Source: Candidatus Omnitrophota bacterium (GTDB lineage Bacteria; Ratteibacteria; UBA8468; B48-G9; JAFGKM01). From it: a stretch of DNA of 55,698 bases. The stretch lies in NCBI GenBank assembly GCA_023818645.1, contig JAMWCJ010000003.1, positions 1 through 55,698 on the forward strand, in the 5' to 3' direction. A model generated the notes under the pieces. That model was not told the origin of the DNA. It saw nothing but the letters and a program-made list of their open reading frames with translations, and searched no databases. The translations under genes and the position numbers were made by a program. Positions within the stretch are counted from its first letter, which is position 1. Every line of letters begins with the position of its first letter. This document shows positions 36,619 to 55,698 of the stretch, piece after piece.

Positions 36619-37135
36619 TTTTTATCACCCCTTTCTTTTTTAAATTTTCTCTTATTTTTTGTAACGATTGAAAATAGGTTGCTTTGACAGTTCCAATTCT
36701 ACTCTTTAAAATATTTGCAATCTCTTGATAAGTAAATTCTTCATATGTTTTTAAAATAAAAACAATTTTTTGTTTTTCTGTTAAATTATCCACTTCTTTT
36801 TCTATTTGTTCTGCTATGTCATCACAACGAATACAATCTTCAAAATTTCTTTTGTTACTATAAAATGGAAAATTTTCATAGTTTAAATTTTCAATTTTTT
36901 TTATTTTAGATTTTTTCCTTAAAAAATCATATGATAAATTAACTGCTATTCTATAAAGATAAGTTGAAAATTTTGAAAGACCTTTAAAACTATTCTTTTT
37001 TTTATAAGCACGAAAAAAAGATTCCTGAACTATATCTAAAGCATCATTATGGTCGTTTAACAATCTGAAAGCCAATCCATAAATCTTATTTGCATAAGTT
37101 AAATAATATTCCTCAAATCTTTTTTCATCTATCAT
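36608..37135 (-). CDS. ECF-type RNA polymerase sigma-70 family factor
   Basis: Region 2 (DALDIVQESFFRAYKK...FSTYLYRIAVN) and region 4 HTH (FTYQEIANILKSRIGTVKATYFQSLQKIR). Confidence 0.85.
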   Translation of the reverse strand: MIDEKRFEEYYLTYANKIYGLAFRLLNDHNDALDIVQESFFRAYKKKNSFKGLSKFSTYLYRIAVNLSYDFLRKKSKIKKIENLNYENFPFYSNKRNFEDCIRCDDIAEQIEKEVDNLTEKQKIVFILKTYEEFTYQEIANILKSRIGTVKATYFQSLQKIRENLKKKGVIKNEM

Positions 37136-38104: not shown

Positions 38105-38597
38105 CTTTTTTAATATTTAGAAGTTCAAAATATATTTTTTTAGCAATCTGTTCAGAAAGTTTGCTAAATATTTCTCCTTCTTTAAAATCCTTATAAATAG
38201 AAGATGAAATAGTTTCTGTCAAATTTTTATTTATAAAAATACTATTTTTCCCCTTTACTTCAATATTAAATTCAATTCTGTGTTTTACACCAACTATATT
38301 GTCAGGGTCTTTTTTATCAAAGAAAAGTGGTATTCTTTCATATTTAAGAATTTTAATAAGAAGTATATAATCTGAACCCTCTTTTAGATCTGTTATTGTA
38401 AAATAGGGATAATTCATAATTATCTCTTTTAATTTTTCATTGATAAGAAAACTTAAAAGCAATTGATTGGAATAATTCTCAATTTTTTCTACATATATTT
38501 TATTTTTTACTGAAATATTTTTATTTATATAACAGGAAGTCAATAATAAAAAAAAACTACATACCTTTACTAATTTTTTCATTAGCAATTTTTCCAT
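38070..38597 (-). CDS. LptE-like outer-membrane lipoprotein
   Basis: Lipobox LLLTSC after a signal peptide, about 150 aa mature size, and a position upstream of the holA-like gene. Direct sequence similarity cannot be judged by eye. Confidence 0.4.
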   Translation of the reverse strand: MEKLLMKKLVKVCSFFLLLTSCYINKNISVKNKIYVEKIENYSNQLLLSFLINEKLKEIIMNYPYFTITDLKEGSDYILLIKILKYERIPLFFDKKDPDNIVGVKHRIEFNIEVKGKNSIFINKNLTETISSSIYKDFKEGEIFSKLSEQIAKKIYFELLNIKKDEKSNSNSERY

Positions 38598-39519
38598 ATT
38601 TTGTATCTGGAAAAAGGGTGATTAGTTTTTTGTAGTAATATATTGCACTTTTTTTCTTACCTGCTTTTTCATAATATCTTGCAATTTGATAATATTTTTC
38701 CGCCTCTTTATTATTGAGAGTAATTTCTATATTTTTTACTTCATTTTTAAATCTACTTTCTGGATATTCAATTAAGAACTCATTTATCTGTTGTTTTATA
38801 TCTTCTATAATGTCTGTGTCAAGAGATGCTTCAGGTATTGAATTTACAGAATATTTTATTTTTAAAAATTTTGCTTCTTCTTCATAGGTTGTTTCTGAAA
38901 AATTTTTTATTATTTTATCTAAAACTTCTATACTTTTATCGTATTCTTTTAATTCATAATAAAAATTTGCTAATTTAAACATTCTATTCACTGCTTCAAT
39001 ATCATATGGGCTATTTTCTATAACTTTATTCATAAATTCTGCTTTTTCTTCTGTATTTTTAAAAAGACCAGAAAATAACCTTCTTCCACTTTTCAAATTT
39101 CTTTCTGCTATTTCTGACTGAACTTTTATTGCAGAGATAACAAGTGATGAGGAAGGATATTCTTCTACAATTTTTTGATAATAATCAAATGCTTTTTTAT
39201 AGTCACCCTTTTCTTTATAAATATTACCGAGTATAAAACAAGATGATGCAGCATATTCTGATTTTGGATAATGTTTTAATAATTTTTTATGTTCTCTTAT
39301 AGAAGTTTCTATTTCACCATTTTTTCTGAATTGTTCAGCATATTCAAACTGTTCTTTAGGAGTATCTTGCACTACATATTTAGGATTTATCCACTTTTTT
39401 GTTTGAGGTGTCCATTCCCAATAAGAATAAGAAAAAAATCTTAATAGAAGGAATATCAAAAAAATTTTACTTTTGTTCATAATTATATTCTTAACTAAAT
39501 AAACATTTTTGTCAATCAT
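38557..39519 (-). CDS. TPR-repeat envelope protein, BamD/YbgF-like (no lipobox Cys)
   Basis: Signal/anchor segment KIFLIFLLLRFF and several TPR units (YPKSEYAASSCFILGNIYKEKGDYKKAFDYYQKIVEEYP...). There is no Cys for lipidation. Confidence 0.5.
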   Translation of the reverse strand: MIDKNVYLVKNIIMNKSKIFLIFLLLRFFSYSYWEWTPQTKKWINPKYVVQDTPKEQFEYAEQFRKNGEIETSIREHKKLLKHYPKSEYAASSCFILGNIYKEKGDYKKAFDYYQKIVEEYPSSSLVISAIKVQSEIAERNLKSGRRLFSGLFKNTEEKAEFMNKVIENSPYDIEAVNRMFKLANFYYELKEYDKSIEVLDKIIKNFSETTYEEEAKFLKIKYSVNSIPEASLDTDIIEDIKQQINEFLIEYPESRFKNEVKNIEITLNNKEAEKYYQIARYYEKAGKKKSAIYYYKKLITLFPDTKYGKIANEKISKGM

Positions 39520-41923: not shown

Positions 41924-41925
41924 AA

Positions 41926-42438
41926 TTAAATATTGGTTTTTGATTTATTTAACTGTAAACAAGAAATTATCATTGAAGTATTTAGAAGATATGGTTTATT
42001 TTTGTCTCTTTTCATTTCAAATTGATAGATATAAATACCTTTTGTTTTTTCAAGTTTTTCAAGTATAGAAAGAAGTTGTTCAATTGTTATAAGATTTATT
42101 TGTATCTCAATTTTTTCTAATAGATATTCATTTATCTTCTCTTTTGGTAAAATATTAATATCACTAATATTTGTTTTTATTGATGAAACTTCAATTAAAT
42201 CATTTAAATAAGAAAATAAAGAAAATCTATCCGTAGCAACTTCAACAGAATAATTCTTTTCTTTAATTTCACCTTTTTTATATTTTTCACACAATTCAAT
42301 AAATTCGTTATATTCTTTTTCTTTTTTTAAAATTAAATTTTCTAAATTTTTGACTTTTCTCTTATTCGGAATATAAATATATTGGTATTCAAAAATAATA
42401 ATAAAGGCAATCAAAATTAAAATAATTCTTCTGTCCAT
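41926..42438 (-). CDS. GspM/PilO-like bitopic inner-membrane assembly protein
   Basis: 170 aa with one N-terminal TM segment (RIILILIAFIIIF) followed by a coiled coil. It is the last gene of the gsp cluster, with start/stop overlap to the L-like gene. Confidence 0.45.
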   Translation of the reverse strand: MDRRIILILIAFIIIFEYQYIYIPNKRKVKNLENLILKKEKEYNEFIELCEKYKKGEIKEKNYSVEVATDRFSLFSYLNDLIEVSSIKTNISDINILPKEKINEYLLEKIEIQINLITIEQLLSILEKLEKTKGIYIYQFEMKRDKNKPYLLNTSMIISCLQLNKSKTNI

Positions 42439-43655
42439 TAAATTACCATTTTTAATAAGATATTAAATTTTACTTTATTCTCTTTTGTAAAAGATATATC
42501 GTTAATTATAAAATCTGTAAAAATCTTTGATTTTCTTACTTTCCCCTCAATAATATCAAAATCCTTTAAACTTTCAACTGTACATATTAAATTTAAATTT
42601 TTATTATTTATTAAAACTTCTTCAACCTCTACATTAATATTTTCTGGAAAAAGATTTGTTATTTCTTCAAGAATTTTTATAATAGGAATTTTGTAAATAG
42701 GGGCTGGAGAATAATTTTTATCTTCCAACATCTTTTCTTTAATTTGTATCAGAGGGTTTATGATTTTTTTTGTTTCAGGAAAGATTGACTTATAAAGATT
42801 TTCCATTCTTTTATTAATTTCCTCTACTTTCTTTTCTTTTTCTATTTTTTCAAAATGTGGATTTATGAAAAATAAAGTACATATGACTAAAAGGAAAAAA
42901 TAAAATATATATTCAAGATTTATTTTTTTCCGTGGCAACAAAATTTCCTGAAAGGAGATGCTTTTAATTTTTTTTGTTTCTTCTAATATGTTGAAAAAAG
43001 TTGCCTCTGATAAAAAATGTATTCCCTCTATTTTTATCTCTTGATAAATTTTTCTATCTCCAATAAAGTAAACAGGGTGTTTTTTAGTTGAAAATAAAGA
43101 AGGAAGGATTTCTGAAATATGTTCTTTTATGTTATCTGAAGAATAAGAATAAACACCAGAAATTACAGAATTTTCAATAAGATTTATTAAAAAATAATCA
43201 TTTTCAGCAAAAAGTTCAATAAAATTGTTTTCTTTAATTTTATTTTTAAAAAATTGGTCAAGCAAGAGAGAATCAATTAAAAATATATATTTTGCCTTAT
43301 TTATTTTAAAAATTTCTTTCAGATAGTTTATTTTATCTTTTTCAATAGCAAAAATTCCAACGATGGTCTTATTCTTCTCAGGATATTGAAAATTTAAATA
43401 AAAATAAAAATTATCAATAGGTAATGGTAACTTACCCTCAATTTCTTGACTTAAGATTAAACTTATTTTCTTTTTGTCAACAAAATCAAATTCTACTTTT
43501 CTAAAAAAAACATTTAATTTAGAAAAAATTAAAACAAAATAATTCCCTCTATTTTCTTTTATAAAATTTTCTAAATTTTCAAAAACGATTTCTCTTTTTT
43601 CACTATTTTTGTAACAATAAACCGTTTCACCCTTTATATATAAATAAATTTTCAT
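42438..43655 (-). CDS. GspL-like (PilM/PilN-type architecture) assembly-platform protein
   Basis: 405 aa with a cytoplasmic about 240-aa domain, a single TM (YIFYFFLLVICTLFFINP) and a periplasmic tail. It sits between gspK and the gspM-like gene. Confidence 0.5.
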   Translation of the reverse strand: MKIYLYIKGETVYCYKNSEKREIVFENLENFIKENRGNYFVLIFSKLNVFFRKVEFDFVDKKKISLILSQEIEGKLPLPIDNFYFYLNFQYPEKNKTIVGIFAIEKDKINYLKEIFKINKAKYIFLIDSLLLDQFFKNKIKENNFIELFAENDYFLINLIENSVISGVYSYSSDNIKEHISEILPSLFSTKKHPVYFIGDRKIYQEIKIEGIHFLSEATFFNILEETKKIKSISFQEILLPRKKINLEYIFYFFLLVICTLFFINPHFEKIEKEKKVEEINKRMENLYKSIFPETKKIINPLIQIKEKMLEDKNYSPAPIYKIPIIKILEEITNLFPENINVEVEEVLINNKNLNLICTVESLKDFDIIEGKVRKSKIFTDFIINDISFTKENKVKFNILLKMVI

Positions 43656-44572
43656 ATAACATCCTTTTTAATCAAATTAGTAGTTTTATCTTTTTTTAAT
43701 ATTCCTTCTGTAATCTTTTCGTCCCCTTTTTCGTTTTTTATTTTAATAAAGACATGAAAATAATTGCTTTTATATTTTATCAAACTTTTGTTTTTTAAAA
43801 AAGTATTTCTGTTTATTTCTAAAAGAAATCTTTCATTCAATGGTCTGTTTTCTCTTTCTTCAATAATTCTATTTACCTGCTCAGTTGTAAAACCAATAGA
43901 ATTTAATATTTCACTTTTACAAGTATTTACATTTATTTTATCATCAGAATATATAGTAATAAAATCTAAAAGTCCCTTCTTTTCTTCTTTCCCATAAACA
44001 ATTTCTTTATTAAACCCTTTTATTAATAAGAGTTCTTTTAGAGATAGCAGATTTCTATTTGGCGGTGTATAACTTAATCCTTCAATTGAATAAGCAAGAT
44101 CTTCTGCTCCATTAGGTCTTGGCAAATTGTCTTCATCTATCCAGTCAAGTAAACAGTCCAAGATAAAGGTTGGATATTCAACGATTGAAATTAGGTTCTT
44201 TAAAATCTCCAAAAGTAGTTGATTGGTTTTACCTTTTTCTCCTATAATTTTATTTATGTTTATCTTTGAATTTTCATCTTCAATTTTAATATATAGGTCA
44301 TAGTTTCCAATTTTATAATTTCTTTCTTGCGTCCAATTTTCTTTTATCCAGTCATAGTTATTTTCATCTTTTTCAAGAATTTTTTTTGCAATTTCAAATC
44401 CAATGTCAGAAATCCTATCCATTTCAATAAAATCATAATAATTTTTGAAAGATTCAAGATACTTTTTTGTTTTATAATTAAAAAATAAAACCACAGATGT
44501 AAGTATAAGAGAAAAACCTAAAACAAAAATTAAAATAAAACCTTTATTTTTTTTCCTCATTTTTTTCTTCAA
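43652..44572 (-). CDS. gspK: Type II secretion minor pseudopilin GspK
   Basis: N-terminal hydrophobic helix (KGFILIFVLGFSLILTSVV) and WIDEDNLPRPNGAEDLAYS...YTPPNRNLLSLKELLLIKGF, typical of GspK. Confidence 0.75.
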   Translation of the reverse strand: MKKKMRKKNKGFILIFVLGFSLILTSVVLFFNYKTKKYLESFKNYYDFIEMDRISDIGFEIAKKILEKDENNYDWIKENWTQERNYKIGNYDLYIKIEDENSKININKIIGEKGKTNQLLLEILKNLISIVEYPTFILDCLLDWIDEDNLPRPNGAEDLAYSIEGLSYTPPNRNLLSLKELLLIKGFNKEIVYGKEEKKGLLDFITIYSDDKINVNTCKSEILNSIGFTTEQVNRIIEERENRPLNERFLLEINRNTFLKNKSLIKYKSNYFHVFIKIKNEKGDEKITEGILKKDKTTNLIKKDVI

Positions 44573-45086
44573 TAATGTTCAATAATACTGGATAAAAAAT
44601 TTCTTCTCCAGAATAGTTTAGTTCAATGGCAATTCCTTTGATGGTTTTATCAGTTTCTGCTATATAATTCCATTTTTCCTCTTGAAAAAAAAGAAAATTT
44701 ATACTTTGACATTTTAAAACAGGGAAACTATATGTATATCCTGAAAAAATATTTTTTTGTTTTCTTATCAATGTTTCTTCTTCATTAACTTTTACTGTAT
44801 AAGTTATTTCAACTGGAAATTCTATATCTTGAATAAAAGTAGAGAAAACAATTTCTTTTTTATCAAGTTTTAAATTATGGAAATCAATAATTCCGTTTAT
44901 CTCAGATTTAAATGAGTAAAGAAAATTAAATAAAAGTTCCTTATTTTTAATTTCTTTTTCAAGATCTTTAACATTTTTTTGAACTGTAAAAACTATTCTA
45001 TAAATGATTAAAAAACTTAAAAGAATTAATGAGAGCGAAATTAAAATTTCAATAAGTGTAAATCCAAGTTTTTTTAAATTATTCAT
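44544..45086 (-). CDS. gspJ: Minor pseudopilin, GspJ-like
   Basis: Prepilin motif KLG-FTLIEILISL. Size (180 aa) and order fit GspJ. Confidence 0.6.
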   Translation of the reverse strand: MNNLKKLGFTLIEILISLSLILLSFLIIYRIVFTVQKNVKDLEKEIKNKELLFNFLYSFKSEINGIIDFHNLKLDKKEIVFSTFIQDIEFPVEITYTVKVNEEETLIRKQKNIFSGYTYSFPVLKCQSINFLFFQEEKWNYIAETDKTIKGIAIELNYSGEEIFYPVLLNIIEEKNEEKK

Positions 45087-45462
45087 TTTTTAAAGATGTT
45101 TTTAAAAATGGAATAAAAGTGGAATAATATTCATCTTTCCATTCTATTATTAATTTATAAGGAATCATTTCAATATCTTGTTCTGTATCTTTTATTGTTA
45201 TATCTGAGATTTTAATTTCCCATATATACTCACTATCTGGTTCATCAAAATTTCCTCTCCCCTCTTTTATTTCTTCGCCTTTTAATTTAATTTCTTCAAT
45301 TTTCTTTTCTGCAAGAAGAATTATTTTTACTTTATCATTTATAATTTTTATCTCTTTTAGACACATTAAAAAATTTGTTAAACATACAGTTGCAACAATT
45401 CCAAAAATTCCAATAGCAACCATTATTTCAAGAAAAGTAAATCCATTTTTATATATTTTCAA
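45079..45462 (-). CDS. gspI: Minor pseudopilin, GspI-like
   Basis: Prepilin motif KNG-FTFLEIMVAIGIFGI. Size (127 aa) and order fit GspI. Confidence 0.6.
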   Translation of the reverse strand: MKIYKNGFTFLEIMVAIGIFGIVATVCLTNFLMCLKEIKIINDKVKIILLAEKKIEEIKLKGEEIKEGRGNFDEPDSEYIWEIKISDITIKDTEQDIEMIPYKLIIEWKDEYYSTFIPFLKTSLKNE

Positions 45463-45912
45463 AATTTATTTCTCCTTTTAAAATTTCTATATCTGAAAAA
45501 GGATTGCTGAAAAGAGTATATTTTAAATTCTTTTCAGAGTCGTAAATGTATAATAGCATAAAATCCTTTTTTCCGTTCGGTTTAATTTTAAAAAAAATTG
45601 TTCCGCTATTCTTTTCTTCAATTTCATTTTTACCTTTATAAAAATCAAAGTTTGAAATAATTGGTTCAACTTGATTTTCTTCGTCATTTCCAAACCAAAA
45701 GGAATTTTCGTCAAGATTAAAAAAGAAATATATCGTTTGTTTATTAGAAATTGCAATTTTTTCTGCTTGTTTAATTTTATCCATTAATTTATTTAATTCT
45801 TCATCAGAAATCTCTAAAAAAAAAGATTTGAAAGAGGGTAAAATTAGAGAAAAAAAAACGAAATTATTAATAAAACCACCATCATTTCAAAAAAAGTGAA
45901 TCCCTTACTCAA
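45449..45912 (-). pseudogene. gspH: Minor pseudopilin GspH-like, split by a -1 frame change inside a T9 run (A9 on the + strand, 45850-45858)
   Basis: Minus-strand frame A (45912-45844) reads TTG-start M-SKG-FTFFEMMVVLLIISFFFL-stop, a prepilin leader plus helix. Frame C is open 45886-45449 and continues FFSLILPSFKSFFLEISDEELNKL-MDKIKQ.... One extra T, or a -1 slip in the run, fuses them into an about 154-aa pseudopilin. Confidence 0.75.
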
Positions 45913-46345
45913 TCTTTGAACTTGATATATCTGCATCTGCCCCTTCTCCTCCTTCTTTTCCATCCCTTCCATATGAAATAATTTCATAATCTTCTCCATT
46001 TCTTCCAGGACTTAAGTATACATAATCATTGTTCCACGGATCTTTTGGAATAGAAGGTTTATCAAGATATCCTCCTTCTCTCCACTTTTGAGGGATTCTA
46101 CCTGATGTGGGTTTTTCTATCAATGCTTTTAGTCCTTGTTCTGTAGAAGGATAGAAACCATTATCAAGATAAAATAATTTAAGTCCACTTTCTAAACTTT
46201 TTATCTGTACTTTTGCAGCAGTAATTTTTGCATCTTCAACTCTTTTTAAAAAAGAAGGGAAAACTAACATTGTAAGCAAACCAAGGATTATAATAACTAC
46301 CATAAGTTCAATAAATGTGAAGCCCTTTTTCATGCTTATCTTCAA
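45905..46345 (-). CDS. gspG: Type II secretion major pseudopilin GspG
   Basis: MKKG-FTFIELMVVIIILGLL, then GFYPSTEQGLKAL and DPWNNDYVYLSPGRNGEDYEIISYGRDGKEGG, the classic GspG core. Confidence 0.9.
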   Translation of the reverse strand: MKISMKKGFTFIELMVVIIILGLLTMLVFPSFLKRVEDAKITAAKVQIKSLESGLKLFYLDNGFYPSTEQGLKALIEKPTSGRIPQKWREGGYLDKPSIPKDPWNNDYVYLSPGRNGEDYEIISYGRDGKEGGEGADADISSSKIE

Positions 46346-46350
46346 CTCCT

Positions 46351-47547
46351 TTATTTTATTGACTGCGATATCTGAAAAATTGGCAATAAAACAGATATAA
46401 CAATAAAACCTATTATACCACCCATAAAAAGTATCATAAATGGTTCTAAAAATGTAACAAATCTCATAGATTTTTGAGAAAGTTCTTCTTGATAAATATC
46501 ACCAACTTTATCAAGCATCTCAGATAAATTTCCACTTCTTTCACCAGCACTTACAAGTTGAGTGAATAAATATGGGAAATATTTACATTTGCTAAAACCA
46601 GAAGAAATAGATCCTCCCTTTGAAACATATTCTGTTAATTTTTCTATTTCCTTTTTAATATTAATGCTATTTAAAACTTCTTTCCCTATATTCAGAGAAT
46701 CAATAATATCAACTCCTCCATTTATTAAAGTAGAAAGTGTTTTAGAAAAATTAATAATTTCTCTTTTTAAAAATATATCGTTTAAAAAAGGTACTTTCCA
46801 TAAAATGTTTTCAAAAATCATTTTTCCCTTTTTTGTCTTTAAAAAGTTTTTGACTAATAATAAAAGCAAAATAACAAAAAGAAAAGAATATATCCAGAAA
46901 AATCTAAGAAAATTAGCAATTTTAATTAATATTTTCGTTAATATAGGTAAATTTAATGAAATTTCAGAAAAAATTCTTGTTATTGTTGGAACAATAAATG
47001 ACAGAATAAAAATCAACACAAAAAAAGCAACAATACACATAAAAACAGGATATGTCATAATGACTTTTATTTTATTTTTAAAGGCATTCCTTTTTTCAAG
47101 GAAATCTGCTATTCTTGATAAAACAAGGTCAAGATTTCCTGTTTCTTCGCCAACTTTTACCATAGATATAAACATATTTGAAAATAAATCAGAATATTTT
47201 TTTAAAGCATTTGAAAAAGATACTCCTTCCCTTATACTTTTTTGTATATCCATAAAAATGTTTTTTAATTTCCCTTCTTTCATTTGTATAATTAGTCCAG
47301 AAAGTGCTTCATCAAGAGGAATTTTAGAACTTAAAAAGGTTGAAAGTTCTTTTATTGCTACAATTAAATCCTCTTCTCTTATTCTATTAAAAACAAGAAA
47401 GTTTAATTTTTTCCACTCTTTGATACTTAATATGTAATATCCTTCTTTTTGAATTTCATCCTTTAATTTGTTTAAATTTTCACTATCTTTTTTACCTTTT
47501 TTTATTTTCCCCTTTTTATCTAAAATTGTATATATAAAGGTGGGCAT
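46351..47547 (-). CDS. gspF: Type II secretion inner-membrane platform protein GspF
   Basis: 398 aa with a duplicated T2SSF domain (MVKVGEETGNLD / LVSAGERSGNLSEML) and 3 TM segments. Confidence 0.9.
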   Translation of the reverse strand: MPTFIYTILDKKGKIKKGKKDSENLNKLKDEIQKEGYYILSIKEWKKLNFLVFNRIREEDLIVAIKELSTFLSSKIPLDEALSGLIIQMKEGKLKNIFMDIQKSIREGVSFSNALKKYSDLFSNMFISMVKVGEETGNLDLVLSRIADFLEKRNAFKNKIKVIMTYPVFMCIVAFFVLIFILSFIVPTITRIFSEISLNLPILTKILIKIANFLRFFWIYSFLFVILLLLLVKNFLKTKKGKMIFENILWKVPFLNDIFLKREIINFSKTLSTLINGGVDIIDSLNIGKEVLNSINIKKEIEKLTEYVSKGGSISSGFSKCKYFPYLFTQLVSAGERSGNLSEMLDKVGDIYQEELSQKSMRFVTFLEPFMILFMGGIIGFIVISVLLPIFQISQSIK

Positions 47548-47549
47548 TT

Positions 47550-49067
47550 TTAAACATCCTGTGTCACTCTTAATACCTCTGATATTGTTGTAAGTCCTTT
47601 TTTTACTTTGTCTATTCCATCCATTCTTAATGTTTTCATTCCTCTTTTTATACCTTCTTTTTTAATCTCGCTTGAAGATGCTCTTTTTAAAATAAGTTCT
47701 TTTATTCCTTCATCAATAACAAGTAATTCAAAAATACCTGTTCTACCATAATATCCCTCATTTAAACAATATTTACAACCTTTTCCCACCATAAATTTAC
47801 TATTTATTAAATCTTTTTCATCAACTTCGGGAATTAATTCAGAAGGTGGTTTTTCTATAACAGAACATTTTGGACAATTTAATCTTACCAACCTTTGAGC
47901 CATAACACCTATTAAAGAAGAGGCGAGTAAATATGGTTCTATTCCCATATCTGTCAATCTCACTATTGCACTTGAAGCATCATTTGTATGTAAAGTGCTG
48001 AAAACAAGATGTCCTGTTAAAGATGCTTGTATTGCCATTTCCGCTGTTTCCCTATCTCTTATTTCTCCAACCATTATAACATTAGGGTCGTGTCTTAATA
48101 TAGACCTTAAACCATTTGCAAAAGTTAATCCTACTTTAGGATTTACTTGTATTTGATTTATCCCTTCAAGATTATATTCAACTGGATCTTCAAGAGTTAT
48201 TATATTTATTCCAGGATTATTGATTTTAGATAAAGCAGCATAGAGTGTTGTTGTTTTTCCACTTCCTGTTGGGCCTGTTAATAAAATAATTCCATGGTCG
48301 TAATGGATTAGTTGGTTAAATTTAATATAATTATCTTCAGAAAAACCAAGTTGTTCAAGACTTAACAAAAAAGTTGCTCTATCAAGCAATCTCAATACAA
48401 CTGATTCACCAAAAAAAGTAGGTATTATAGAAATTCTTATATCAATTTTTTTACTATCAACTTTTATTGATGTTCTTCCATCCTGTGGAATCCTTTTTTC
48501 TGCAATATCAAGATTAGACATTATTTTAATTCTTGTTATGATTGGTGGATGATATTTTTTGGGGAGAACAAAAATGTCGTGAAGAATTCCGTCTATTCTA
48601 TATCTAACTTTTAAAGAAGTTTCCATAACTTGAAGGTGAATATCACTTGCTCTCATTGAGATTGCTCTATAAATTATTTGATTTACTATTCTGATAACAG
48701 GTGCTTTATTGGCAAGGTCAAGAAGGTTAGATGTTTCAGTATCAATATTTTCGTCTAAATGTAATGATTCTTCTGTACGCAGATCATCAATCACTTTTTT
48801 TGAAGAACTTGGATGATAATAAAATTTTTCAATAGTTTCATTTATTTTCTCTTCGCTTGAAATGGCTATTTTTATGTCCTTTTTAAGAATTGTTTTTATC
48901 TCTCCTATATCAAGATTTAAAGGATTATTTGTGATAATAAGGATTTCTCCATTTTCACCATTAACAGGAATAAAACAATTATTTTTTAAAAAATTATAAG
49001 GGAAAATATTCAAAATTTCAGGGTCTATCCTGTCTTCAAAATTTTCTATCCATCTCAATTTATCCAT
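47550..49067 (-). CDS. gspE: Type II secretion ATPase GspE
   Basis: N-terminal GspE_N-like domain, Walker A GPTGSGKTT, Asp box, Walker B VIMVGEIRD, His box, and a tetracysteine CPKC...CKYC. Confidence 0.95.
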   Translation of the reverse strand: MDKLRWIENFEDRIDPEILNIFPYNFLKNNCFIPVNGENGEILIITNNPLNLDIGEIKTILKKDIKIAISSEEKINETIEKFYYHPSSSKKVIDDLRTEESLHLDENIDTETSNLLDLANKAPVIRIVNQIIYRAISMRASDIHLQVMETSLKVRYRIDGILHDIFVLPKKYHPPIITRIKIMSNLDIAEKRIPQDGRTSIKVDSKKIDIRISIIPTFFGESVVLRLLDRATFLLSLEQLGFSEDNYIKFNQLIHYDHGIILLTGPTGSGKTTTLYAALSKINNPGINIITLEDPVEYNLEGINQIQVNPKVGLTFANGLRSILRHDPNVIMVGEIRDRETAEMAIQASLTGHLVFSTLHTNDASSAIVRLTDMGIEPYLLASSLIGVMAQRLVRLNCPKCSVIEKPPSELIPEVDEKDLINSKFMVGKGCKYCLNEGYYGRTGIFELLVIDEGIKELILKRASSSEIKKEGIKRGMKTLRMDGIDKVKKGLTTISEVLRVTQDV

Positions 49068-50652
49068 CTTTATTTATCCCTTCTATTAATTTTTCTTTCT
49101 CTTGTTTTATTTTTTCTGCCTGTTCAAATGTTGAAATTATATGAGGTGTAATAAATATCATTAAGTTTGTTTTTATTGATTTAGTTGTCTCTTTTCTGAA
49201 TAACCTGCCGAGAAGTGGGATGTCTCCAAAGAATGGAACTTTTTGAAGCGATTTTTCTGAATCGTTTCTTAATAATCCACCGAGAACAACAGTTTTTCCA
49301 TTTGGAATTATTAAAGTTGTTTCTGCCTGTCTTTTTGCTGTTGTTGGTGCTTCAGGTATTCCTCCTTCAACAAGTTTTGTAACCTCTTGAGAAATTTTTA
49401 ATCTTACATATTTATCCTGACTTATCTGCGGAGTTATTTTTAATATAATCCCAACATCTTTATAATCATAACTTTTAACAACATCGCTACCCTGTCCACT
49501 TGAATAAGTGTAAAACCTTGTTTCTTTTAAATAAGGTATATTTTCACTTATATTTATTTTTGCTTCCTGATTATCTGCGGTTACAATTTGTGGTGTTGAA
49601 AGTATATTGAACTGACTATCTTTTGCATACATATTTATTAAAGCGCCTACACTTAAAGGGAAAGTAAAATCACCTTTATAAAAAGCAAGAGAAAGTCCTG
49701 ATGGTGGAACTCCTGATGCAATATAAGAAGCAATATCTCCAAAGTTAGTTCCTGTAACACCTGTATAATTTTCATTATTAAATTTCCAAGATGTTGCCCA
49801 TTCTATTCCAAGTTGTTTTGTTTTATCAATAGTTACTTCTGCAATTAATGCTTCAATTAAAACTTGGTTTGTTAAAACATCCAGTTCTTTTATAATTTTT
49901 TCAATTGTATCAAAATCATTAGGGTCTGCATAAACAATTAGTGAATTTGTTGCTTTTACACTAACAACCTGTGGTTGTATAGGTGCTGTTCTTGCTATAG
50001 GTCTAACAGCAGAAATCTTTTTTTGTAAAATTTGACCTAAAACTTTAGCAATTTCTTCAGCATCAGCATTTTGTAATTTAAATATTCTTATTTCCTCTTG
50101 TCCTGGTGGACTTGGTTTATCTATTTTTTCAATAATACTAATTATTTTTTTAATATTTTCACCGACATCTGCAATAATTAAGGTATTTGTTCTTGCATCA
50201 ATTGTAATCTGTCCTCCTTTAGAAATATATGGTGTTATTATTTGAGAGATTGTATCTGAGGGATAATATTTTAGAGGAATTACTTGGATTATAAAATTCT
50301 CTTCTTTATTTTCTGGTATGTCAGAAATATTTATATCTTTTGCTCTTATTTTACCTTCAGAAATAGGAATAATCAGTGATAGATTTTCTTTTTTTATAAC
50401 TGTAAAACCATAAAAGTTTAATACAGATTTAAAAACTCTGTCAATATTTTCAACAGGTACAGGAGTTGTTGAATAAATAGTTATAGTTCCTCTTACATTT
50501 GGGTCTAATACATAGTTTTCTTTCGTTAATTCACCTATAAATTTAATAAATGTCTTTATATCAACATTATTGAAGTTCAAATAAAAATTGCTTTCGGATA
50601 AAATAACTATTGAAGAAAAAAAATAAATAATAAAATAAAGAACCTTTTTCAT
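49060..50652 (-). CDS. gspD: Secretin, GspD type (compact, 530 aa)
   Basis: Signal peptide, an N0-like domain (FNNVDIKTFIKFIGELTKENYVLDPNVRGTITIY), N1/N2-like repeats, a secretin core (QVLIEALIAEVT...) and the C-terminal VPFFGDIPLLGRLFRK....NLMIFITPHII. Confidence 0.9.
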   Translation of the reverse strand: MKKVLYFIIYFFSSIVILSESNFYLNFNNVDIKTFIKFIGELTKENYVLDPNVRGTITIYSTTPVPVENIDRVFKSVLNFYGFTVIKKENLSLIIPISEGKIRAKDINISDIPENKEENFIIQVIPLKYYPSDTISQIITPYISKGGQITIDARTNTLIIADVGENIKKIISIIEKIDKPSPPGQEEIRIFKLQNADAEEIAKVLGQILQKKISAVRPIARTAPIQPQVVSVKATNSLIVYADPNDFDTIEKIIKELDVLTNQVLIEALIAEVTIDKTKQLGIEWATSWKFNNENYTGVTGTNFGDIASYIASGVPPSGLSLAFYKGDFTFPLSVGALINMYAKDSQFNILSTPQIVTADNQEAKINISENIPYLKETRFYTYSSGQGSDVVKSYDYKDVGIILKITPQISQDKYVRLKISQEVTKLVEGGIPEAPTTAKRQAETTLIIPNGKTVVLGGLLRNDSEKSLQKVPFFGDIPLLGRLFRKETTKSIKTNLMIFITPHIISTFEQAEKIKQEKEKLIEGINKDG

Positions 50653-50681
50653 TTTTATAATTCTGGTGTCAATCTTAAATT

Positions 50682-51749
50682 TTACCTAATAACTCCACCT
50701 TGAGTTCCTATTGTTCTTGCTCTTTCGCGTGTATAGGTATCTATTGCATTTTCTATTGCTTGTTTTACCTCATCGTCTGTTTCTTTTTTTAATCTTTCAA
50801 GTAAAATATTCAAAATCTGGGGATTGTATTCCATTGCAGAAATAATCTTAACTGCATTTTTTCTAATCTCTGGATTATCATCATTAAGATATTTAATTAT
50901 TGAAGGGTCAACGCCAAATATTCCAGTTATACTTGTTCCCCTTGTTCCACCTTGTCCTTCTCTACTTAGACCAACACTTTGTAGATATAACTCAATTGAA
51001 TCAGTCAATACTTTTCTCACTCCTTCATCTTTTTCATATTTTAATCTTACAAGTAATGTTCTTAAAGCAATAAGTTCCTGTAAACTCCCTGCTTCATATT
51101 CATCTCTTTGTGAACCAGTTCTATTTCTTGTATCGGTTCCTGCAAAACTTCTTGTTGAAAAGATTTTTGTAGCATACTGTCTAACTACAGGGTCAGGATC
51201 ATCCATAAATCTTAAAATAGTTACATCTGTTTCAAATAGAATATCAAGTCCCATAGATGCCATATCTTGAACTTCAGGGTCAGGGTCATTTAAAAGCACA
51301 AAAAGGTCTGGGATAAAAATTGCTCCTCCAACTCCTTCTCCACCTCTATCTCTACTATCTCTACCAATATCCATACCAAATAACCCTCTTACTCCACTCC
51401 TATTATCTGAAGTTCCTCTTGTTCCCTCTCCGCTTACCATTGCTCCTGTTAATGATTGAATTGCTTGAATTCTTACTTTTGGGTCAGGGTGTCTTAAATA
51501 ACTTCCAATTATTGCTGCTAAGAAATTTGCAAGTTGTGAACTTCTATAATCTTCTTCTCTACCAGATTGACCCCTAATTCCTCTTCCCAATCCTCCCTGT
51601 CCAAATGTACCTGTTCTTGAACCAATACTTCCCTGCCTTGATATATTAGAAATTCTTGTTGCTTGTTGTGTTGAAGTTGTTTGAGAAAAAAGCACTGTAG
51701 TAGCCAATAACACTATTATAAACACCATACTTTTTATTATTTTCTTCAT
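50682..51749 (-). CDS. Secreted/periplasmic HEAT-repeat protein with Gly/Arg/Ser/Thr-rich linkers
   Basis: Signal peptide MKKIIKSMVFIIVLLATTVLFS-QTT. Five HEAT-like units (HPDPKVRIQAIQSL, NDPDPEVQDMASMGL, DDPDPVVRQYATKIF, NDDNPEIRKNAVKII, ETDDEVKQAIENAI) are separated by GTRGTS/GRG-type low-complexity segments. Confidence 0.7.
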   Translation of the reverse strand: MKKIIKSMVFIIVLLATTVLFSQTTSTQQATRISNISRQGSIGSRTGTFGQGGLGRGIRGQSGREEDYRSSQLANFLAAIIGSYLRHPDPKVRIQAIQSLTGAMVSGEGTRGTSDNRSGVRGLFGMDIGRDSRDRGGEGVGGAIFIPDLFVLLNDPDPEVQDMASMGLDILFETDVTILRFMDDPDPVVRQYATKIFSTRSFAGTDTRNRTGSQRDEYEAGSLQELIALRTLLVRLKYEKDEGVRKVLTDSIELYLQSVGLSREGQGGTRGTSITGIFGVDPSIIKYLNDDNPEIRKNAVKIISAMEYNPQILNILLERLKKETDDEVKQAIENAIDTYTRERARTIGTQGGVIR

Positions 51750-51808
51750 TTTCCCCTCCCTTTTTGTTTATATATTACCTTAACTTTTTATAAATGTCAA
51801 TATTTTCT

Positions 51809-53671
51809 TTAAAACTTTTCAAGTAATCCACCTTCTATCTTTTCTTCTGACTTTTTAACATCTGGTTTTGTAATTTCAACTGATTCTTCATAAGATGAGA
51901 TAATATGAGGAGTTATAAAAATTAATAGTTCACTTTTATTTCTATCAAAACTTGGTTTTTTAAATAAATATCCAAGGATAGGAATTCTTCTTAAAAAAGG
52001 AATGCCAGATTCTTTTGCTTCTTCTCTACTTCTTATCATTCCACCTATAACAAGTGTTTCTTTGTCATATAGAACAACGCTTTGAGTTGTCATTCTTTCA
52101 GATAAAATTGGGATTTCAATTGAATATCTTTGGTCAGCAGTCATTGCTTCAAGTTTTCTCCTTTCAATTAGATTTGAATCATATATGTTTAGATTAAGCA
52201 TAATTGTTCTGTTTCTTTGTATCAAAGGTGTAACTTCAAATTCAGTTCCAATTATTTCTTCTTGTAGATTTATTGCACTTGCAGTAGTTACTGTTGGTGC
52301 TCCTGTTGCTGGTGTTGTTATTGTTTGTTGTGTTTCAGGTATTATATAAGGTTCATTTTGTGTTACTGCTATATATGCAGTTGTTCCGTTTATACAGGTA
52401 ATTTTTGGTGCTTGAATTATTTTTGCCTTACCCCTTGTTGCAAGTGCCTGAATTAATGTATTGAAATCTCTATTGGTTACTCCAAAAGAAAATCCAGTTG
52501 GTAATGTTTGTGTTAATCCAGGAGTATATGTGATATTATCTCCAAATCTTGGGCCAGTTAAAGTTCCGTCAATAGCGTTAATCATTCTTGAACTTATCAT
52601 CCAGTCAATAGAAAATTGATTACCTTCAGAAGTTGCTACTTCTACAATTTTACATTCAAGAAGAACTTGAGAAACAGGTGTATCAAGTGTAGAAATAACA
52701 CCTTCTATATTTCTTAAAATATTTTCACTTTGTGCTTCAGCTATTATTGAATTTGTTGTTGGTTCAGGATAAGCAGTTATTCCTTTAAAAACTTCTCTTA
52801 ACGCTTTTACAATTGTACTGGCATCTGTGTAATAAAGTTTAAATACTCTTCTTGCTTTCTGGATCTCTTTAATTTTTTCCTGATATTCTTCTTTTGTCAT
52901 TATCTTTATTATTCCATTTTCTTCTATATATTTAAGTCCATTCTGTTCACATATAGTATCAAGAACTATTCTAATTGGTATATCTTTGAAACTGAGTGTA
53001 ACCTTTCCAGAAACATTAGGACTTAAAATATAACTTACTCCAGTAATTTGATACAATTCATCCAATGCTTCTTTGAGGTTCATATCTTTTAATTCAATCG
53101 TTACTTTTTTATTCCCTATTTCACCTAATTTTGGTCTTTCTTCTTCAATTTTTCTCAAAACTATTTCTTCCATCTGTCTTCTTGCTTTACTTGCAAGTCG
53201 TATTGTTTCAGTAAACATATTACTTTCATATGATTTTTGAGCAAGATTGAAAGTAGATGTTGGTTCCAATTTTTCTATATCTGAAAGGTTATATTTTTCA
53301 TTAACTTCATTAAAATATTTACTTGTTTCTAATAATGCCTGTTGTGCCTGAAATGCCAATTTTTCGAACTCCTCTTCCCTATTAACTATAATCTCACCTT
53401 TTAAATCTTCACCTATCTTAAATTCCTCTTTTGTATTAAGTTTTCCAAGTCGTGCCTGTGAATTTTTAAGATATCTATCAACATCTGATTTTCTGTAATT
53501 TGGGTTTATTGATTTTATTTTAGTGAAAGTTGCAATTGCATTAGGATAGTCCTTTTTGAGATAATAAGAAACTCCAAGATTATATAAATCCCTCAAATTT
53601 TCTTGAGTATATAAGTTAAAATTCAAAAAAATTAAAATCAATAGTAAAATTAACCCACTTTTTCTTATCAT
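51809..53671 (-). CDS. Second secretin, PilQ-like, with an N-terminal TPR-like/helical extension
   Basis: Signal peptide, a TPR-like unit (LYNLGVSYYLKKDYPNAIATFTKIKSINPNY), an N0/STN-like domain (LKDMNLKEALDELYQITGVSYILSPNVSGKVTLSFKDIP), a secretin core (QVLLECKIVEVAT...) and GIPFLRRIPILGYLFKK....ELLIFITPHII. Confidence 0.85.
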   Translation of the reverse strand: MIRKSGLILLLILIFLNFNLYTQENLRDLYNLGVSYYLKKDYPNAIATFTKIKSINPNYRKSDVDRYLKNSQARLGKLNTKEEFKIGEDLKGEIIVNREEEFEKLAFQAQQALLETSKYFNEVNEKYNLSDIEKLEPTSTFNLAQKSYESNMFTETIRLASKARRQMEEIVLRKIEEERPKLGEIGNKKVTIELKDMNLKEALDELYQITGVSYILSPNVSGKVTLSFKDIPIRIVLDTICEQNGLKYIEENGIIKIMTKEEYQEKIKEIQKARRVFKLYYTDASTIVKALREVFKGITAYPEPTTNSIIAEAQSENILRNIEGVISTLDTPVSQVLLECKIVEVATSEGNQFSIDWMISSRMINAIDGTLTGPRFGDNITYTPGLTQTLPTGFSFGVTNRDFNTLIQALATRGKAKIIQAPKITCINGTTAYIAVTQNEPYIIPETQQTITTPATGAPTVTTASAINLQEEIIGTEFEVTPLIQRNRTIMLNLNIYDSNLIERRKLEAMTADQRYSIEIPILSERMTTQSVVLYDKETLVIGGMIRSREEAKESGIPFLRRIPILGYLFKKPSFDRNKSELLIFITPHIISSYEESVEITKPDVKKSEEKIEGGLLEKF

Positions 53672-53719
53672 ATACTTCCTCCTTTTATAATTTTATTTCT
53701 TTTAATTAGTTTTGTCAAG

Positions 53720-55698
53720 TTATTTTACATCTATTGAATATATCAACCCTTCCTTTGATAAAATTAATTTTTTATCCTCTCTTTTCATTAATCTGTACCC
53801 TTCTACTTCATCTCCTATTGTTACTTTATATGTTTTTTTCTCTCCTTCAATAAAGAAATATTCAACACCTTCTAATATCATTCTGCCTCTATAAATAAGT
53901 TTACATTCTTTTTGAGGAAGAATAAATGGAGTGGTTTTTACTTCTGGGACTTTTTCAATTTCTGACAGTTTTGTAGATATAGAAACTTGTTCTGGTTTAG
54001 TAATAATTGGCTTTTCAACAGGAGATACTTTTGGTACTTCTGGCTTTTCAACAGGAGAGATTTTTGGTACTTCTGGTTTTTCAGGTTCAGTTATTTTTTC
54101 TTCTGCCTTTAAAATACTTACAAATTTTTGTGTTTTCATAATTGAGATAACATCGGGTTTTTTAGCATATATTATATTTGTAGGAGTAGGTTTTTTCATA
54201 ACTTCCATCGTTAACCTTCCAGTAGAAAATGGGTCTCTTTTTCCCTCTATGTCAATTTTTTCTTTTGTATAGTAAACAAGTTTTTCTTCTTCTATAACCT
54301 CTTTTTTCTTTTCCGGTGCAGGTCTTACTTCTGCCATTTCACCTACTATAAGTTTTAATCTTTCTTCAGGAGAAACTAATTTTTTGAGATATAATAATAG
54401 TTCTACAATCCACGCAAATATAAGAACTATAAAAACAAATTTAAATATATTTCTTCTTAAAAAGGACCTGAGATTGAAAGGTTCTTTATAAACAGCAACC
54501 TTAACTTTTTCTTTTGGAATAATTTTTGCTTTTTCAGGAACAATTTTTACACGTTTTTTCTTTAGAATTTCTTTTTTCTTAAGATTTATAAGATTTGTAA
54601 TGTTCTTTTTTGTATCATTTAATTGAAATTCTGGAATTTTATCTGTTTCAACAACTATTTTAGATATGTTGTCTATATATGTTTTAATTTTTTGTTGTTC
54701 TTCTTTTCTTCTTATTATTTCTTCTTTTTCAGGTCTTGTTATTTTTATCTCTTTTACAGGTATCTTTTCTTTCTTTTTTAGAAGGATTTCTTTTCTTTCT
54801 TTTTCAAGTTTTTTTGCTATTTCAATAAGTTCTAGTTTTCTTTGTCTTTCAATTGTTTTTTTGTAAAGAATAAGATTGGTGTAAAGGAGGTTTTTTTCCT
54901 TTTCTATTTGATTTAGAAGTGCTTTATATCTTATAAAATTGAATAAATTCTGTTTGTTTTTTATTCGTAAGTTCTTTTGCTCTAATTTCTTTTGAAGTTT
55001 CCTTTTCTCTCTTTCTTTCTGCCTTTCTTTCTCTAACTCTAACTTCTTCTTTAACTCCTCTTGCTTTTTCTCCTCTAACTGCTTCCTTAACTCTTCCTTT
55101 TCCTTCCTCTGTCTTTCTCTTTCCTCCTGTATTTTCTTTATTTGCTCCTGTCTTTCTCTCTCTTTCTCCTCCTTCTCTTTTTCTTTTAATTCTAATACCT
55201 TTTGTTTCTCCTTGCTTCTCCTTTCCTTTAATTCCTGTTTTTCTAATAGTAACTTTTCCCTTAATCTCTTATTCTCTTCTACTTTCTTCTTTAATAACTC
55301 TAATATCTCCTCTCTTTTCTTTAATTTTTCTTGCTTTTCTTTTCTAACTTGCTCTAATCTTTTCTCTTTTTCCTGTTCTCTTTCCTTTAATAGTTCCTGT
55401 TTCCTTTTCTCTCTTTCTTTCTGCCTTTCTTTCTCTAACTCTAACTTCTTCTTTAACTCCTCTTGCTTTTTCTCCTCTAACTGCTTCCTTAACTCTTCCT
55501 TTTCCTTCCTCTGTCTTTCTCTTTCCTCCTGTATTTTCTTTATTTGCTCCTGTCTTTCTCTCTCTTTCTCTTCCTTCTGCTTTTCTTTTAATTCTAAATA
55601 TTTTTTTCTTTTTTCTTTTCTTCTTTTACTATTTAATATAAATGCTTTGTCTGCTTCTTCTGGTTTTTTTTCTTTGTTTATTTCCTTATCAGTCCAAT
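53720..55698 (-). CDS. PilP/GspC-like secretin-docking protein fused to a very long Glu/Lys/Arg coiled-coil N-terminal region (5' end outside the window)
   Basis: I checked every in-frame triplet from 54338 to 55696 on the minus strand and found no stop and no ATG/GTG/TTG. The 205-aa track ORF (53720..54337) is therefore only the tail of an ORF of at least 658 aa. Layout: over 430 aa of polyampholyte coiled coil, one TM (IFKFVFIVLIFAWIVELLLYL, about 54386-54448), an RDPF motif, Pro-rich PEVPK(I/V)SPVEK repeats, and a C-terminal beta domain LIYRGRMILEGVEYFFIEGEKKTYKVTIGDEVEGYRL that fits the PilP/GspC HR pattern. Confidence 0.7.
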   Translation of the reverse strand, partial: WTDKEINKEKKPEEADKAFILNSKRRKEKRKKYLELKEKQKEEKERERQEQIKKIQEERERQRKEKEELRKQLEEKKQEELKKKLELEKERQKEREKRKQELLKEREQEKEKRLEQVRKEKQEKLKKREEILELLKKKVEENKRLREKLLLEKQELKERRSKEKQKVLELKEKEKEEKERERQEQIKKIQEERERQRKEKEELRKQLEEKKQEELKKKLELEKERQKEREKRKLQKKLEQKNLRIKNKQNLFNFIRYKALLNQIEKEKNLLYTNLILYKKTIERQRKLELIEIAKKLEKERKEILLKKKEKIPVKEIKITRPEKEEIIRRKEEQQKIKTYIDNISKIVVETDKIPEFQLNDTKKNITNLINLKKKEILKKKRVKIVPEKAKIIPKEKVKVAVYKEPFNLRSFLRRNIFKFVFIVLIFAWIVELLLYLKKLVSPEERLKLIVGEMAEVRPAPEKKKEVIEEEKLVYYTKEKIDIEGKRDPFSTGRLTMEVMKKPTPTNIIYAKKPDVISIMKTQKFVSILKAEEKITEPEKPEVPKISPVEKPEVPKVSPVEKPIITKPEQVSISTKLSEIEKVPEVKTTPFILPQKECKLIYRGRMILEGVEYFFIEGEKKTYKVTIGDEVEGYRLMKREDKKLILSKEGLIYSIDVK
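54011..54076. repeat. 33-bp tandem repeat (2 copies plus a partial third) encoding the Pro-rich spacer
   Basis: Copy 1 is cttttcaacaggagatacttttggtacttctgg (54011-54043) and copy 2 is cttttcaacaggagagatttttggtacttctgg (54044-54076). They encode PEVPKVSPVEK and PEVPKISPVEK. Confidence 0.8.
54997..55597. repeat. In-frame intragenic direct duplication, two copies 402 bp apart
   Basis: 54997-55168 is identical to 55399-55570 (172 bp). Similarity extends to about 199 bp (to 55195/55597) with 3 mismatches. The 402-bp offset equals 134 codons. Confidence 0.85.

Follow-up and report, generated by a model that had tools for sequence, protein, structure and literature searches.

The window analysed here, a stretch of 55,698 nucleotides from a Candidatus Omnitrophota bacterium placed among the Ratteibacteria (GenBank assembly GCA_023818645.1, contig JAMWCJ010000003.1), carries on its minus strand a complete set of gsp genes, those of a type II secretion system (T2SS), headed by a gene for a second secretin, of PilQ type. 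Secretin-based machines (T2SS, type IV pili (T4P), type III secretion systems, filamentous phage export) are usually described with one secretin type per apparatus. Here, we showed that both secretins are intact, that they differ in type, and that their genes stay together in related genomes. We read the locus, with confidence that stops a little short of even, as a single co-regulated T2SS-type system with two distinct outer-membrane conduits and a shared motor and pseudopilin set. Three genes stand at the centre of the arrangement:

51809..53671, minus strand: PilQ-type secretin of 620 aa, with signal peptide, TPR/helical N-terminal region, N0/STN, one N1 (Secretin_N) and secretin domain (Pfam, profile and tree).
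50682..51749, minus strand: HEAT-repeat protein, periplasmic or secreted, with a signal peptide lacking a lipobox Cys and with Gly/Arg/Ser-rich stretches (Pfam HEAT, HEAT_2).
49060..50652, minus strand: GspD, T2SS secretin of 530 aa (TIGR02517, 453.7 bits against a cut-off of 351.35).

An initial annotation, made from the sequence alone, had proposed that the cluster, with all its genes in one direction, combines a complete Gsp set with two secretins that differ in type and are not fragments, and the domain searches (Pfam, NCBIfam) and the tree bear this out; the C-terminal secretin motif that it quoted is indeed present on both. GspD has the Pfam domains GspD-N0, Secretin_N (twice) and Secretin, and T2SS GspD proteins fill the first ten places among its sequence matches in PDB. 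The 620-aa secretin falls below every NCBIfam equivalog cut-off, such as those of PilQ (TIGR02515, 175.7 against 284.35 bits) and GspD (TIGR02517, 166.5 against 351.35), and it reaches 76.4 bits with the Amuc_1098 family NF042912, for which the cut-off is 750. Pfam finds no AMIN domain in it, and a TPR region stands in its place. Over the whole span from N0 to the C-terminus, the profile of its family is collinear with PilQ (Myxococcus, Pseudomonas, Vibrio, Neisseria); with GspD it aligns over N3 and the secretin domain only.

We placed both families in a neighbour-joining tree of 58 secretins (410 columns, 200 bootstraps), a crude tree with outgroups drawn from matches to the 620-aa protein. 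Monophyly is recovered in 99% of replicates for the 620-aa family and in 95% for the GspD family. In 191 of 200 bootstraps a split sets the former beside AMIN/PilQ-type secretins and leaves the named GspD/XpsD, together with the local GspD family, on the other side. The two families are sister in none of the 200, and we therefore reject a recent duplication of gspD as the source of the 620-aa secretin. That one of the two is a decaying or redundant duplicate without current function seems to us hardly credible. The 620-aa family does evolve faster than GspD, as in locus L012, where the two proteins are 53% and 83% identical, respectively, to those of the window. Yet, both secretins are intact and of full length, about 30 species-level genomes conserve them, recent paralogy is excluded, and the 620-aa one has a conserved promoter of its own (see below). 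Homologues of the 620-aa secretin come from metagenome-assembled genomes (MAGs) labelled Ratteibacteria or Omnitrophica/Omnitrophota, and such Omnitrophica records are Ratteibacteria in GTDB (10.1101/2023.11.21.568195). Five MAG records (L010, L018, L025, L033, L045) bear discordant labels (Pacearchaeota, Vermiphilus, Elusimicrobia, TA06), which are probably binning or labelling errors.

Downstream of gspD, the secretion genes follow one another up to gspM; the gspH-position gene, which is split between two frames, is described further on.

47550..49067, minus strand: GspE ATPase with N-terminal MshEN (Pfam T2SSE 6.8e-136, MshEN 9.4e-12).
46351..47547, minus strand: GspF platform protein (Pfam T2SSF 2.4e-60, two stretches).
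45905..46345, minus strand: GspG major pseudopilin (TIGR01710, 165.2 bits against a cut-off of 88.85; Pfam T2SSG 1e-40).
45079..45462, minus strand: GspI-like minor pseudopilin (N_methyl; gspI TIGR01707 5.9e-6, below cut-off).
44544..45086, minus strand: minor pseudopilin in the GspJ position (N_methyl; T2SSJ faint in relatives).
43652..44572, minus strand: GspK minor pseudopilin (Pfam T2SSK_1st 3.7e-14, above cut-off; NF037980 1e-25, below cut-off).
42438..43655, minus strand: GspL, with actin-like cytoplasmic domain, transmembrane (TM)/coiled helix and ferredoxin-like periplasmic domain (Pfam matches of the family; AlphaFold2 model and Foldseek).
41926..42438, minus strand: GspM (T2SSM in 7 of 8 family members, best 3.5e-9; window member 0.012).

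The Pfam and NCBIfam matches, the family searches and the structure model show that this D-E-F-G-H-I-J-K-L-M set is genuine and in canonical order. MshEN is a domain type reported as a receptor of cyclic di-GMP in some such ATPases. The L-like and M-like proteins of the window gave no match by themselves and were therefore assessed through their family members. GspL_C is matched by 18 of 19 members of the L-like family and PilN by 11, the window member being weak (0.13). The AlphaFold model of the L-like protein (pLDDT 81) retrieves with Foldseek the cytoplasmic part of EpsL (1yf5, TM-score 0.67), the GspE-GspL complex (4pht, 0.64) and the periplasmic part of PulL (5hl8, 0.80). GspM has an N-terminal TM segment, as read from its sequence. 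Searched against PDB sequences, the L-like and M-like family profiles gave a weak PilM match (0.08) or nothing, and hhalign of the M-like with the PilO-like alignment (see below) was negative.

All thirteen minus-strand genes that the initial annotation listed between 41926 and 55698 are present at or near the positions it gave, but two of its open reading frame (ORF) descriptions, those of GspH and of a 205-aa protein upstream of the PilQ-type secretin, need correcting. The genes that it reported as missing from the window, GspN and a prepilin peptidase (GspO/PilD), are absent from the Pfam-scanned window ORFs (most of at least 120 aa), and so is GspC (T2SSC/PDZ). Nor does the 55.7-kb window hold any ATPase, platform or pilin gene besides the gsp set. 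PilB, PilT, PilC and a type IVa major pilin were found neither in the window nor in the flanks of about 10 kb of some 50 loci.

The pairing of the two secretins is a conserved one, shared by about 30 related genomes. We gathered 38 loci from a scan of a genome collection and more from look-ups and a metagenome scan, and mapped the window proteins onto all of them; 31 distinct loci, reaching 3 kb or more past the secretin on its downstream side, were informative for the pairing. The order secretin-HEAT-GspD occurs in 26 of these and secretin-GspC-GspD in three more, so that 29 of the 31 keep the two secretins on either side of a HEAT or a GspC gene. One locus (L018) has secretin-HEAT-GspE without GspD, and the shorter L023 is alike. 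There, the HEAT gene and gspE are just 127-159 nt apart (L018 5089-7783, L023 1681-4473) with no gspD between them; gspD is lost or moved. The last locus (L006) shows neither arrangement. Wherever a locus of the main lineage extends far enough downstream, the 620-aa-type secretin is followed by the HEAT gene, also in the GspD-less L006 and L018. In six loci (L001, L014, L015, L021, L024, L044) the string of genes ends at gspE, which places their gspF-M elsewhere and leaves the secretin pairing in place. A tRNA-Gln follows gspE in L001.

The association on the other side is looser. Upstream sequence of 5.5 kb or more is available for 20 loci; PilM, PilO and an HR-domain protein are encoded in 18 of them, and two (L012, L050) lack all three. 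The secretin of L012, a fairly close relative, is preceded by unrelated genes and then directly by TTGACA-16-TATAAT, and it keeps its pairing with gspD. L050, of a sister lineage, has gltX, a CBS-domain gene and transporters upstream, and its secretin stays with gspC/D/E. Hence, the PilQ-type secretin occurs with gsp genes and without PilM/O/HR in two settings, and with PilMNOP-type genes alone in one case. This secretin, with its HEAT protein, is the hinge of the locus, connected in most cases to both modules. The sister-lineage secretin is about 34% identical to that of the window, and a true GspC (T2SSC and PDZ) occupies the HEAT slot there. The initial annotation had pointed to the absence of a GspC next to GspD. 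The window indeed has no T2SSC or PDZ domain, but the lack is specific to the lineage, since the sister lineage has GspC between its secretins.

Signals for transcription point in the same direction:

53690..53718, minus strand: sigma-70-like promoter motif TTGACA-17-TAAAAT, 11/12 matches, two bases past the stop of the HR-protein gene (one intervening C) and about 20 nt before the ribosome-binding site of the 620-aa secretin.
51772..51800, minus strand: promoter-like site TTGACA-17-TAATAT in the 59-nt gap before the HEAT gene, conserved in part of the family only.

The first element is found at the same position across the secretin family. Stretches of 80 nt upstream of each gene were scored for motifs with at least 10/12 matches, with shuffled sequences as controls. 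Such motifs precede the PilQ-type secretin in 39% of 46 stretches against 3% of shuffled ones, the HEAT gene in 27%, gspD in 4%, and gspE, gspF, gspK and gspL in 0%. The gap between the secretin and HEAT genes shrinks to merely 11-21 nt in some relatives. These motifs argue for a transcription unit that would begin at the PilQ-type secretin and run into the gsp genes. Because a conserved promoter lies just before it, the 620-aa secretin belongs with the gsp genes. The initial annotation had considered that a standard pilMNOPQ operon might end at 51809 with a terminator, the gsp genes having a separate promoter. We reject this arrangement: no terminator-like site lies on the coding strand between 41000 and 55698, the conserved promoter precedes the 620-aa secretin, and this secretin stays with gspD/E in L012 and L050.

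The tight packing of the genes, which had been taken as a sign of one operon, does not carry the same weight. The whole window, with a GC content of about 27%, has nearly all its genes on the minus strand from about 3.6 kb to the right end. The median same-strand gap elsewhere in it is -4 nt, and polA sits equally tight on gspM. Since packing is tight throughout the window, by itself it reveals neither an operon nor a functional unit. Seven loci (L003, L027, L031-L034, L045) have a short hairpin just 5' of the HEAT ribosome-binding site, in a secretin-HEAT gap of 70-80 nt. Its stem shows compensating changes (e.g. GCCGTG..CACGGC, CTGCGG..CCGCAG, TGCGA..TCGCA), and it is absent from the window's own lineage.

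The PilQ-type secretin is directly preceded by the gene of a membrane-anchored protein that runs off the window:

53720..55698, minus strand: HR-domain protein (PilP/GspC/GspB-like) of about 700 aa, its 5' end cut by the window edge and its frame open to 55698.
54386..54445, minus strand: putative single TM segment of this protein, FKFVFIVLIFAWIVELLLYL, from the hydrophobicity of the translation.
53723..53896, minus strand: C-terminal six-strand beta domain with the GspC-HR/PilP fold (AlphaFold2 model and Foldseek).
54997-55224 and 55399-55626, minus strand: 228-nt direct repeat in two copies, 93% identical and 402 nt apart, in the Lys/Glu-rich coding region (sequence comparison).

It had been described as a PilP/GspC-like ORF of 205 aa. 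Its frame is open to the window edge and encodes at least 658 aa, and comparison with L047, whose secretin is 88% identical, places the start about 45 codons beyond the edge. The protein consists of a Lys/Glu-rich cytoplasmic region, one TM segment, a Pro-rich linker and a C-terminal domain of about 60 aa. Relatives show scaffold gaps or contig ends at the Lys/Glu-rich region, and the direct repeat probably accounts for the window ending in this gene. Pfam gave no match for the protein or its family members, nor did a search of PDB with a profile of the domain, and the HR fold is thus seen from the structure model alone. In an AlphaFold2 model of the last 80 residues the core has a pLDDT above 90, and the best 14 Foldseek matches are all GspC-HR, PilP or GspB, as the initial annotation had guessed. 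They include GspC bound to GspD (3oss_C, TM-score 0.74), PulC-HR (6hcg_e, 0.70), PilP (2y4y, 0.61) and GspB (4wfw), with weak E-values of 0.01-0.3. The family is restricted to the lineage (16 matches) and its C-terminal module is strongly conserved. The HR domain occurs in one protein only of the window, adjoining the PilQ-type secretin. In the sister lineage, L008 (113-1933) has an HR-type domain twice in tandem at the C-terminus of a 607-aa upstream protein; it also has a 122-aa protein with a weak SpoIIIAH-like match before GspC.

The architecture of the HR-domain protein fits exactly neither PilP nor GspC, and is nearest to GspB/OutB. Like GspB/OutB/ExeB, it crosses the inner membrane once and carries a periplasmic linker followed by an HR-type domain at the C-terminus, and 4wfw is among its fold matches. 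It differs from them in lacking sequence similarity, in its far longer Lys/Glu-rich cytoplasmic region, and in the position of its gene, which adjoins the PilQ-type secretin and not GspD. One might speculate that the PilQ-type secretin is an accessory of the T2SS, either a gate specific for some cargo or for the HEAT protein, or a partner that co-assembles or stacks with GspD, with the HEAT and HR proteins as assembly or anchoring factors in the manner of a pilotin or GspB. The GspB/OutB-like build of the HR protein, with its cytoplasmic region, TM segment, Pro-rich linker and C-terminal HR domain and no PDZ, would suit this role, as would the HEAT gene always following the PilQ-type secretin in the main lineage and the TPR region of that secretin, which resembles the pilotin-like TPR of Akkermansia PilQ (PMC4960237). 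This is at odds with the complete N0-N1-secretin architecture, typical of an autonomous pore, and with the upstream PilMN and PilO, which imply a full trans-envelope scaffold and not a simple gate. Mixed or stacked secretin rings are, moreover, without precedent, and we regard an accessory role as improbable.

What lies beyond the window edge could be read from relatives. Their upstream genes come in the order proB-proA-nadD-pheS-pheT-zapA, tRNA-Met, a PilM-PilN fusion, a PilO-like gene and the HR-domain protein. The initial annotation had proposed looking for pilM/N/O-like genes past 55698, and this is where relatives have them, with pilM and pilN fused. The first 330 residues of the fusion, about 570 aa long, match Myxococcus PilM (3jc8_Ma, 1e-43), and past residue 330 or so come a TM segment, a coiled coil, a Pro-rich linker and an alpha/beta domain; this succession identifies it as a fusion of PilM-PilN type. 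The PilO-like gene encodes about 250 aa, has precomputed matches to Amuc_1100 (PF28028) and matches PilO in 11 of 11 members (best 1.5e-4). Amuc_1100 itself has reportedly been found to improve metabolic measures in mice. The tRNA-Met sequence was visible in all 16 zapA-pilM gaps inspected and marks the upstream end of the locus. ARAGORN finds this tRNA-Met (CAT), between zapA and pilM-pilN, in L001 5571-5645, L003 4486-4560, L005 5181-5252 and L013 5493-5566.

With pilM-pilN and pilO-like genes in front, the upstream half of the locus amounts to a full PilMNOPQ-type set. This brings in a serious alternative, which we hold to be possible rather than probable: two independent type IV filament systems, adjacent by shared ancestry. 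One would be a PVC-type pilus module like Amuc_1098-1102 of Akkermansia (PilMN, PilO, PilP-like protein, TPR-PilQ and HEAT accessory) with its ATPases, platform and pilins elsewhere, and the other an ordinary T2SS that lost GspC in this lineage. The upstream genes do follow the canonical M-N-O-P-Q order, with the PilM and PilO matches just given and the PilP/HR fold, and the 620-aa secretin lies on the PilQ side of the tree with the TPR-plus-secretin layout of Akkermansia PilQ (PMC4960237). Yet, it counts against two separate systems that the PilQ-type secretin keeps gspC/D/E where PilM/O/HR are absent (L012, L050), and that a conserved promoter parts it from pilMNOP and not from the gsp genes. 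So does the adjacency, which is kept down to about 34% secretin identity, and so do the flanks, which, wherever retrieved, hold no T4P motor or pilin genes.

Naturally, several observations weigh against a single system with two conduits, and some of them speak for two systems at the same time. The locus encodes two full inner-membrane platforms (PilMN/PilO and GspL/GspM), as two machines would need, the second of which supplies the T2SS with a platform of its own. L006 and L007 hold the pilus-type module without gspD/E; in L006, the secretin and HEAT genes are followed by unrelated genes, with transposases nearby and no gspD/E adjoining. In the sister lineage GspD comes with a dedicated GspC, and the T2SS part can therefore stand by itself. 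Close packing of co-directional genes runs through the whole genome, and our promoter calls are motif matches, not transcript data. Model-organism pilMNOPQ operons normally lack motor and pilin genes, and hence missing pilus motor and pilin genes at the locus prove nothing; PilB, PilT, PilC and the major pilin could lie elsewhere in these genomes. Finally, we know of no type IV filament machine with two secretins that has been demonstrated.

If the locus nevertheless encodes a single system, GspE, GspF, GspL and GspM and the G-K pseudopilins would be its sole motor and filament set. GspD would be the canonical exit pore, and the PilQ-type secretin might serve as a second pore that shares this motor and these pilins and offers an outlet in place of, or in addition to, GspD. 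The PilQ-type secretin would be transcribed from its own conserved promoter together with the HEAT and gsp genes. Its link to the inner membrane would be the HR-domain protein, joined in this lineage by PilMN and PilO. The analysis establishes what the genes and folds are, that their order and the promoter motif are conserved, and that the modules can part; we infer co-transcription, the sharing of the motor and the choice of the secretin N0 that the HR domain would bind. One machine with two pores may be what these genes build; the initial annotation had suggested a dual-channel or stacked assembly.

The gspH-position gene presents a puzzle of its own:

45449..45912, minus strand: gspH-position minor pseudopilin in two frames, with a TTG start at 45912-45910, a frame-0 stop at 45846-45844 and the remainder in the -1 frame.
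45850..45858, minus strand: T9 run (A9 on the plus strand), a candidate recoding site, invariant in 15 loci.

The GspH of the initial annotation, an ORF at 45449-45784, is only the 3' part of the gene, which begins at TTG 45912, overlapping the gspG stop, and changes frame at T9. The gap of about 120 bp between gspG and gspH is therefore coding. Frame 0 encodes MSK-GFTFFEMMVVLLIISFFF, which comprises the prepilin motif and the first part of the helix. The globular part follows in the -1 frame, where the ORF has no ribosome-binding site of its own that we could read from the sequence. The fused product has the N_methyl motif. No GspH family model matches it, and the name is thus positional. Exactly T9, at the same codon and with the downstream frame at -1, is found in the window and in all other loci that cover the gene (L003, L013, L022, L027, L031-L036, L039, L043, L045, L047), i.e. 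in 15 of 15 distinct loci, despite a locus GC content ranging from 27 to 51% and a protein identity of just 22-55%. An assembly error can be rejected, the same T9 being present in 15 independent assemblies. T9 is thus a candidate site of +1 U transcriptional slippage or of -1 ribosomal frameshifting, and either the extra U or the ribosomal shift would yield a pseudopilin of about 150 aa. As a result of the frame change, gene callers leave gspH unannotated; they miss it or call its 3' part alone.

Slippage at a U run is known from Shigella mxiE, and 9A/9T runs have been analysed too (PMC1088944). The gspH site resembles such programmed systems (Shigella mxiE, Thermus dnaX, insertion sequence elements; PMC1088944) in that a 9-nt homopolymer joins two overlapping frames, and one added U restores the long product, as in mxiE. 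It differs in sitting in the gene of a minor pseudopilin of a secretion system. A full-text literature search for transcriptional slippage in pseudopilins found no paper, and this would be, as far as we found, the first recoding site reported in a pseudopilin gene. One might then picture a Ratteibacteria T2SS-type nanomachine in which one motor and pseudopilin set (GspE/F, G-K) would serve two secretin channels, each with its own platform (GspL/M with GspD; PilMN, PilO and the HR protein with TPR-PilQ), as a dual-outlet or switchable secretion/pilus apparatus whose level of GspH would be set by obligatory slippage at T9. In this full form, we find the picture rather unlikely.

Other genes of the neighbourhood can be mentioned briefly. 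polA (39512-41926) begins 2 nt past the gspM stop and also follows gspM in L003, L013, L027, L033, L034 and L039. Downstream of it, at 36163-37135 and 38557-39519, are a gene for a TPR/YfiO(BamD)-like lipoprotein and the genes of an ECF-type sigma factor and a zf-HC2 anti-sigma factor, in which we saw no link to the secretion locus. Rfam finds no RNA family and ARAGORN no tRNA in the window.

A gsp string headed by a second, PilQ-type secretin, and conserved across much of a candidate phylum, could show one motor plugged into two outer-membrane exits. Alternatively, the locus could capture an intermediate between pilus and secretion system, which would bear on the origin of the T2SS from the type IVa pilus (T4aP). 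The initial annotation did not recognise the layout as a described subtype. Targeted searches of the literature on two-secretin T2SS, Omnitrophota secretins and PVC PilQ found no description of it, and a type IV filament survey (PMC6668835) has none of the phrases on secretin number that we sought; the upstream half nevertheless resembles a cluster of Akkermansia, discussed last.

The likeness to the canonical gspC-M operons of Proteobacteria (Pul, Eps, Xcp) lies in GspD, E, F and G, four minor pseudopilins including GspK, and L and M, all in canonical order. Unlike these operons, the window lacks a GspC (T2SSC/PDZ) and has a HEAT gene in the slot before gspD, its gene string opens with an additional secretin, of PilQ type, that has a promoter to itself, the scanned window ORFs include no prepilin peptidase, and gspH needs the T9 frame change. 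The upstream half has the gene order of the T4aP PilMNOPQ operons of Pseudomonas, Myxococcus and Neisseria, with the PilM actin-like domain, a PilO-like protein, a PilP-fold domain and an N0-N1-secretin. Yet, PilM is fused to the PilN-like part in a GspL-like architecture. The PilP-like protein, of about 700 aa, is anchored by a TM segment, has a long Lys/Glu-rich cytoplasmic region and no lipobox, and is not a lipoprotein as PilP is; the secretin has a TPR/helical N-terminus in place of AMIN domains. The gsp genes follow directly, and no PilB/PilT/PilC or type IVa pilin is known for the module.

The closest named analogue that the upstream half resembles is the Amuc_1098-1102 'type IV pili' cluster of Akkermansia muciniphila (PMC5332112, PMC4960237, PMC10688800), which we compared by its description. 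Both have a PilM/FtsA-like gene, an Amuc_1100-type gene, an unannotated protein and a secretin with an N-terminal TPR region, as reported for Akkermansia PilQ (PMC4960237), and both hosts belong to the PVC group. The window secretin is about 290 aa shorter than that of the Amuc_1098 family, and adjacency to gspD-M goes unmentioned in the papers on the cluster (PMC5332112, PMC4960237, PMC10688800). The locus described here places the PVC-type Amuc_1098-1102 cluster, which is still poorly understood, in a genomic context.

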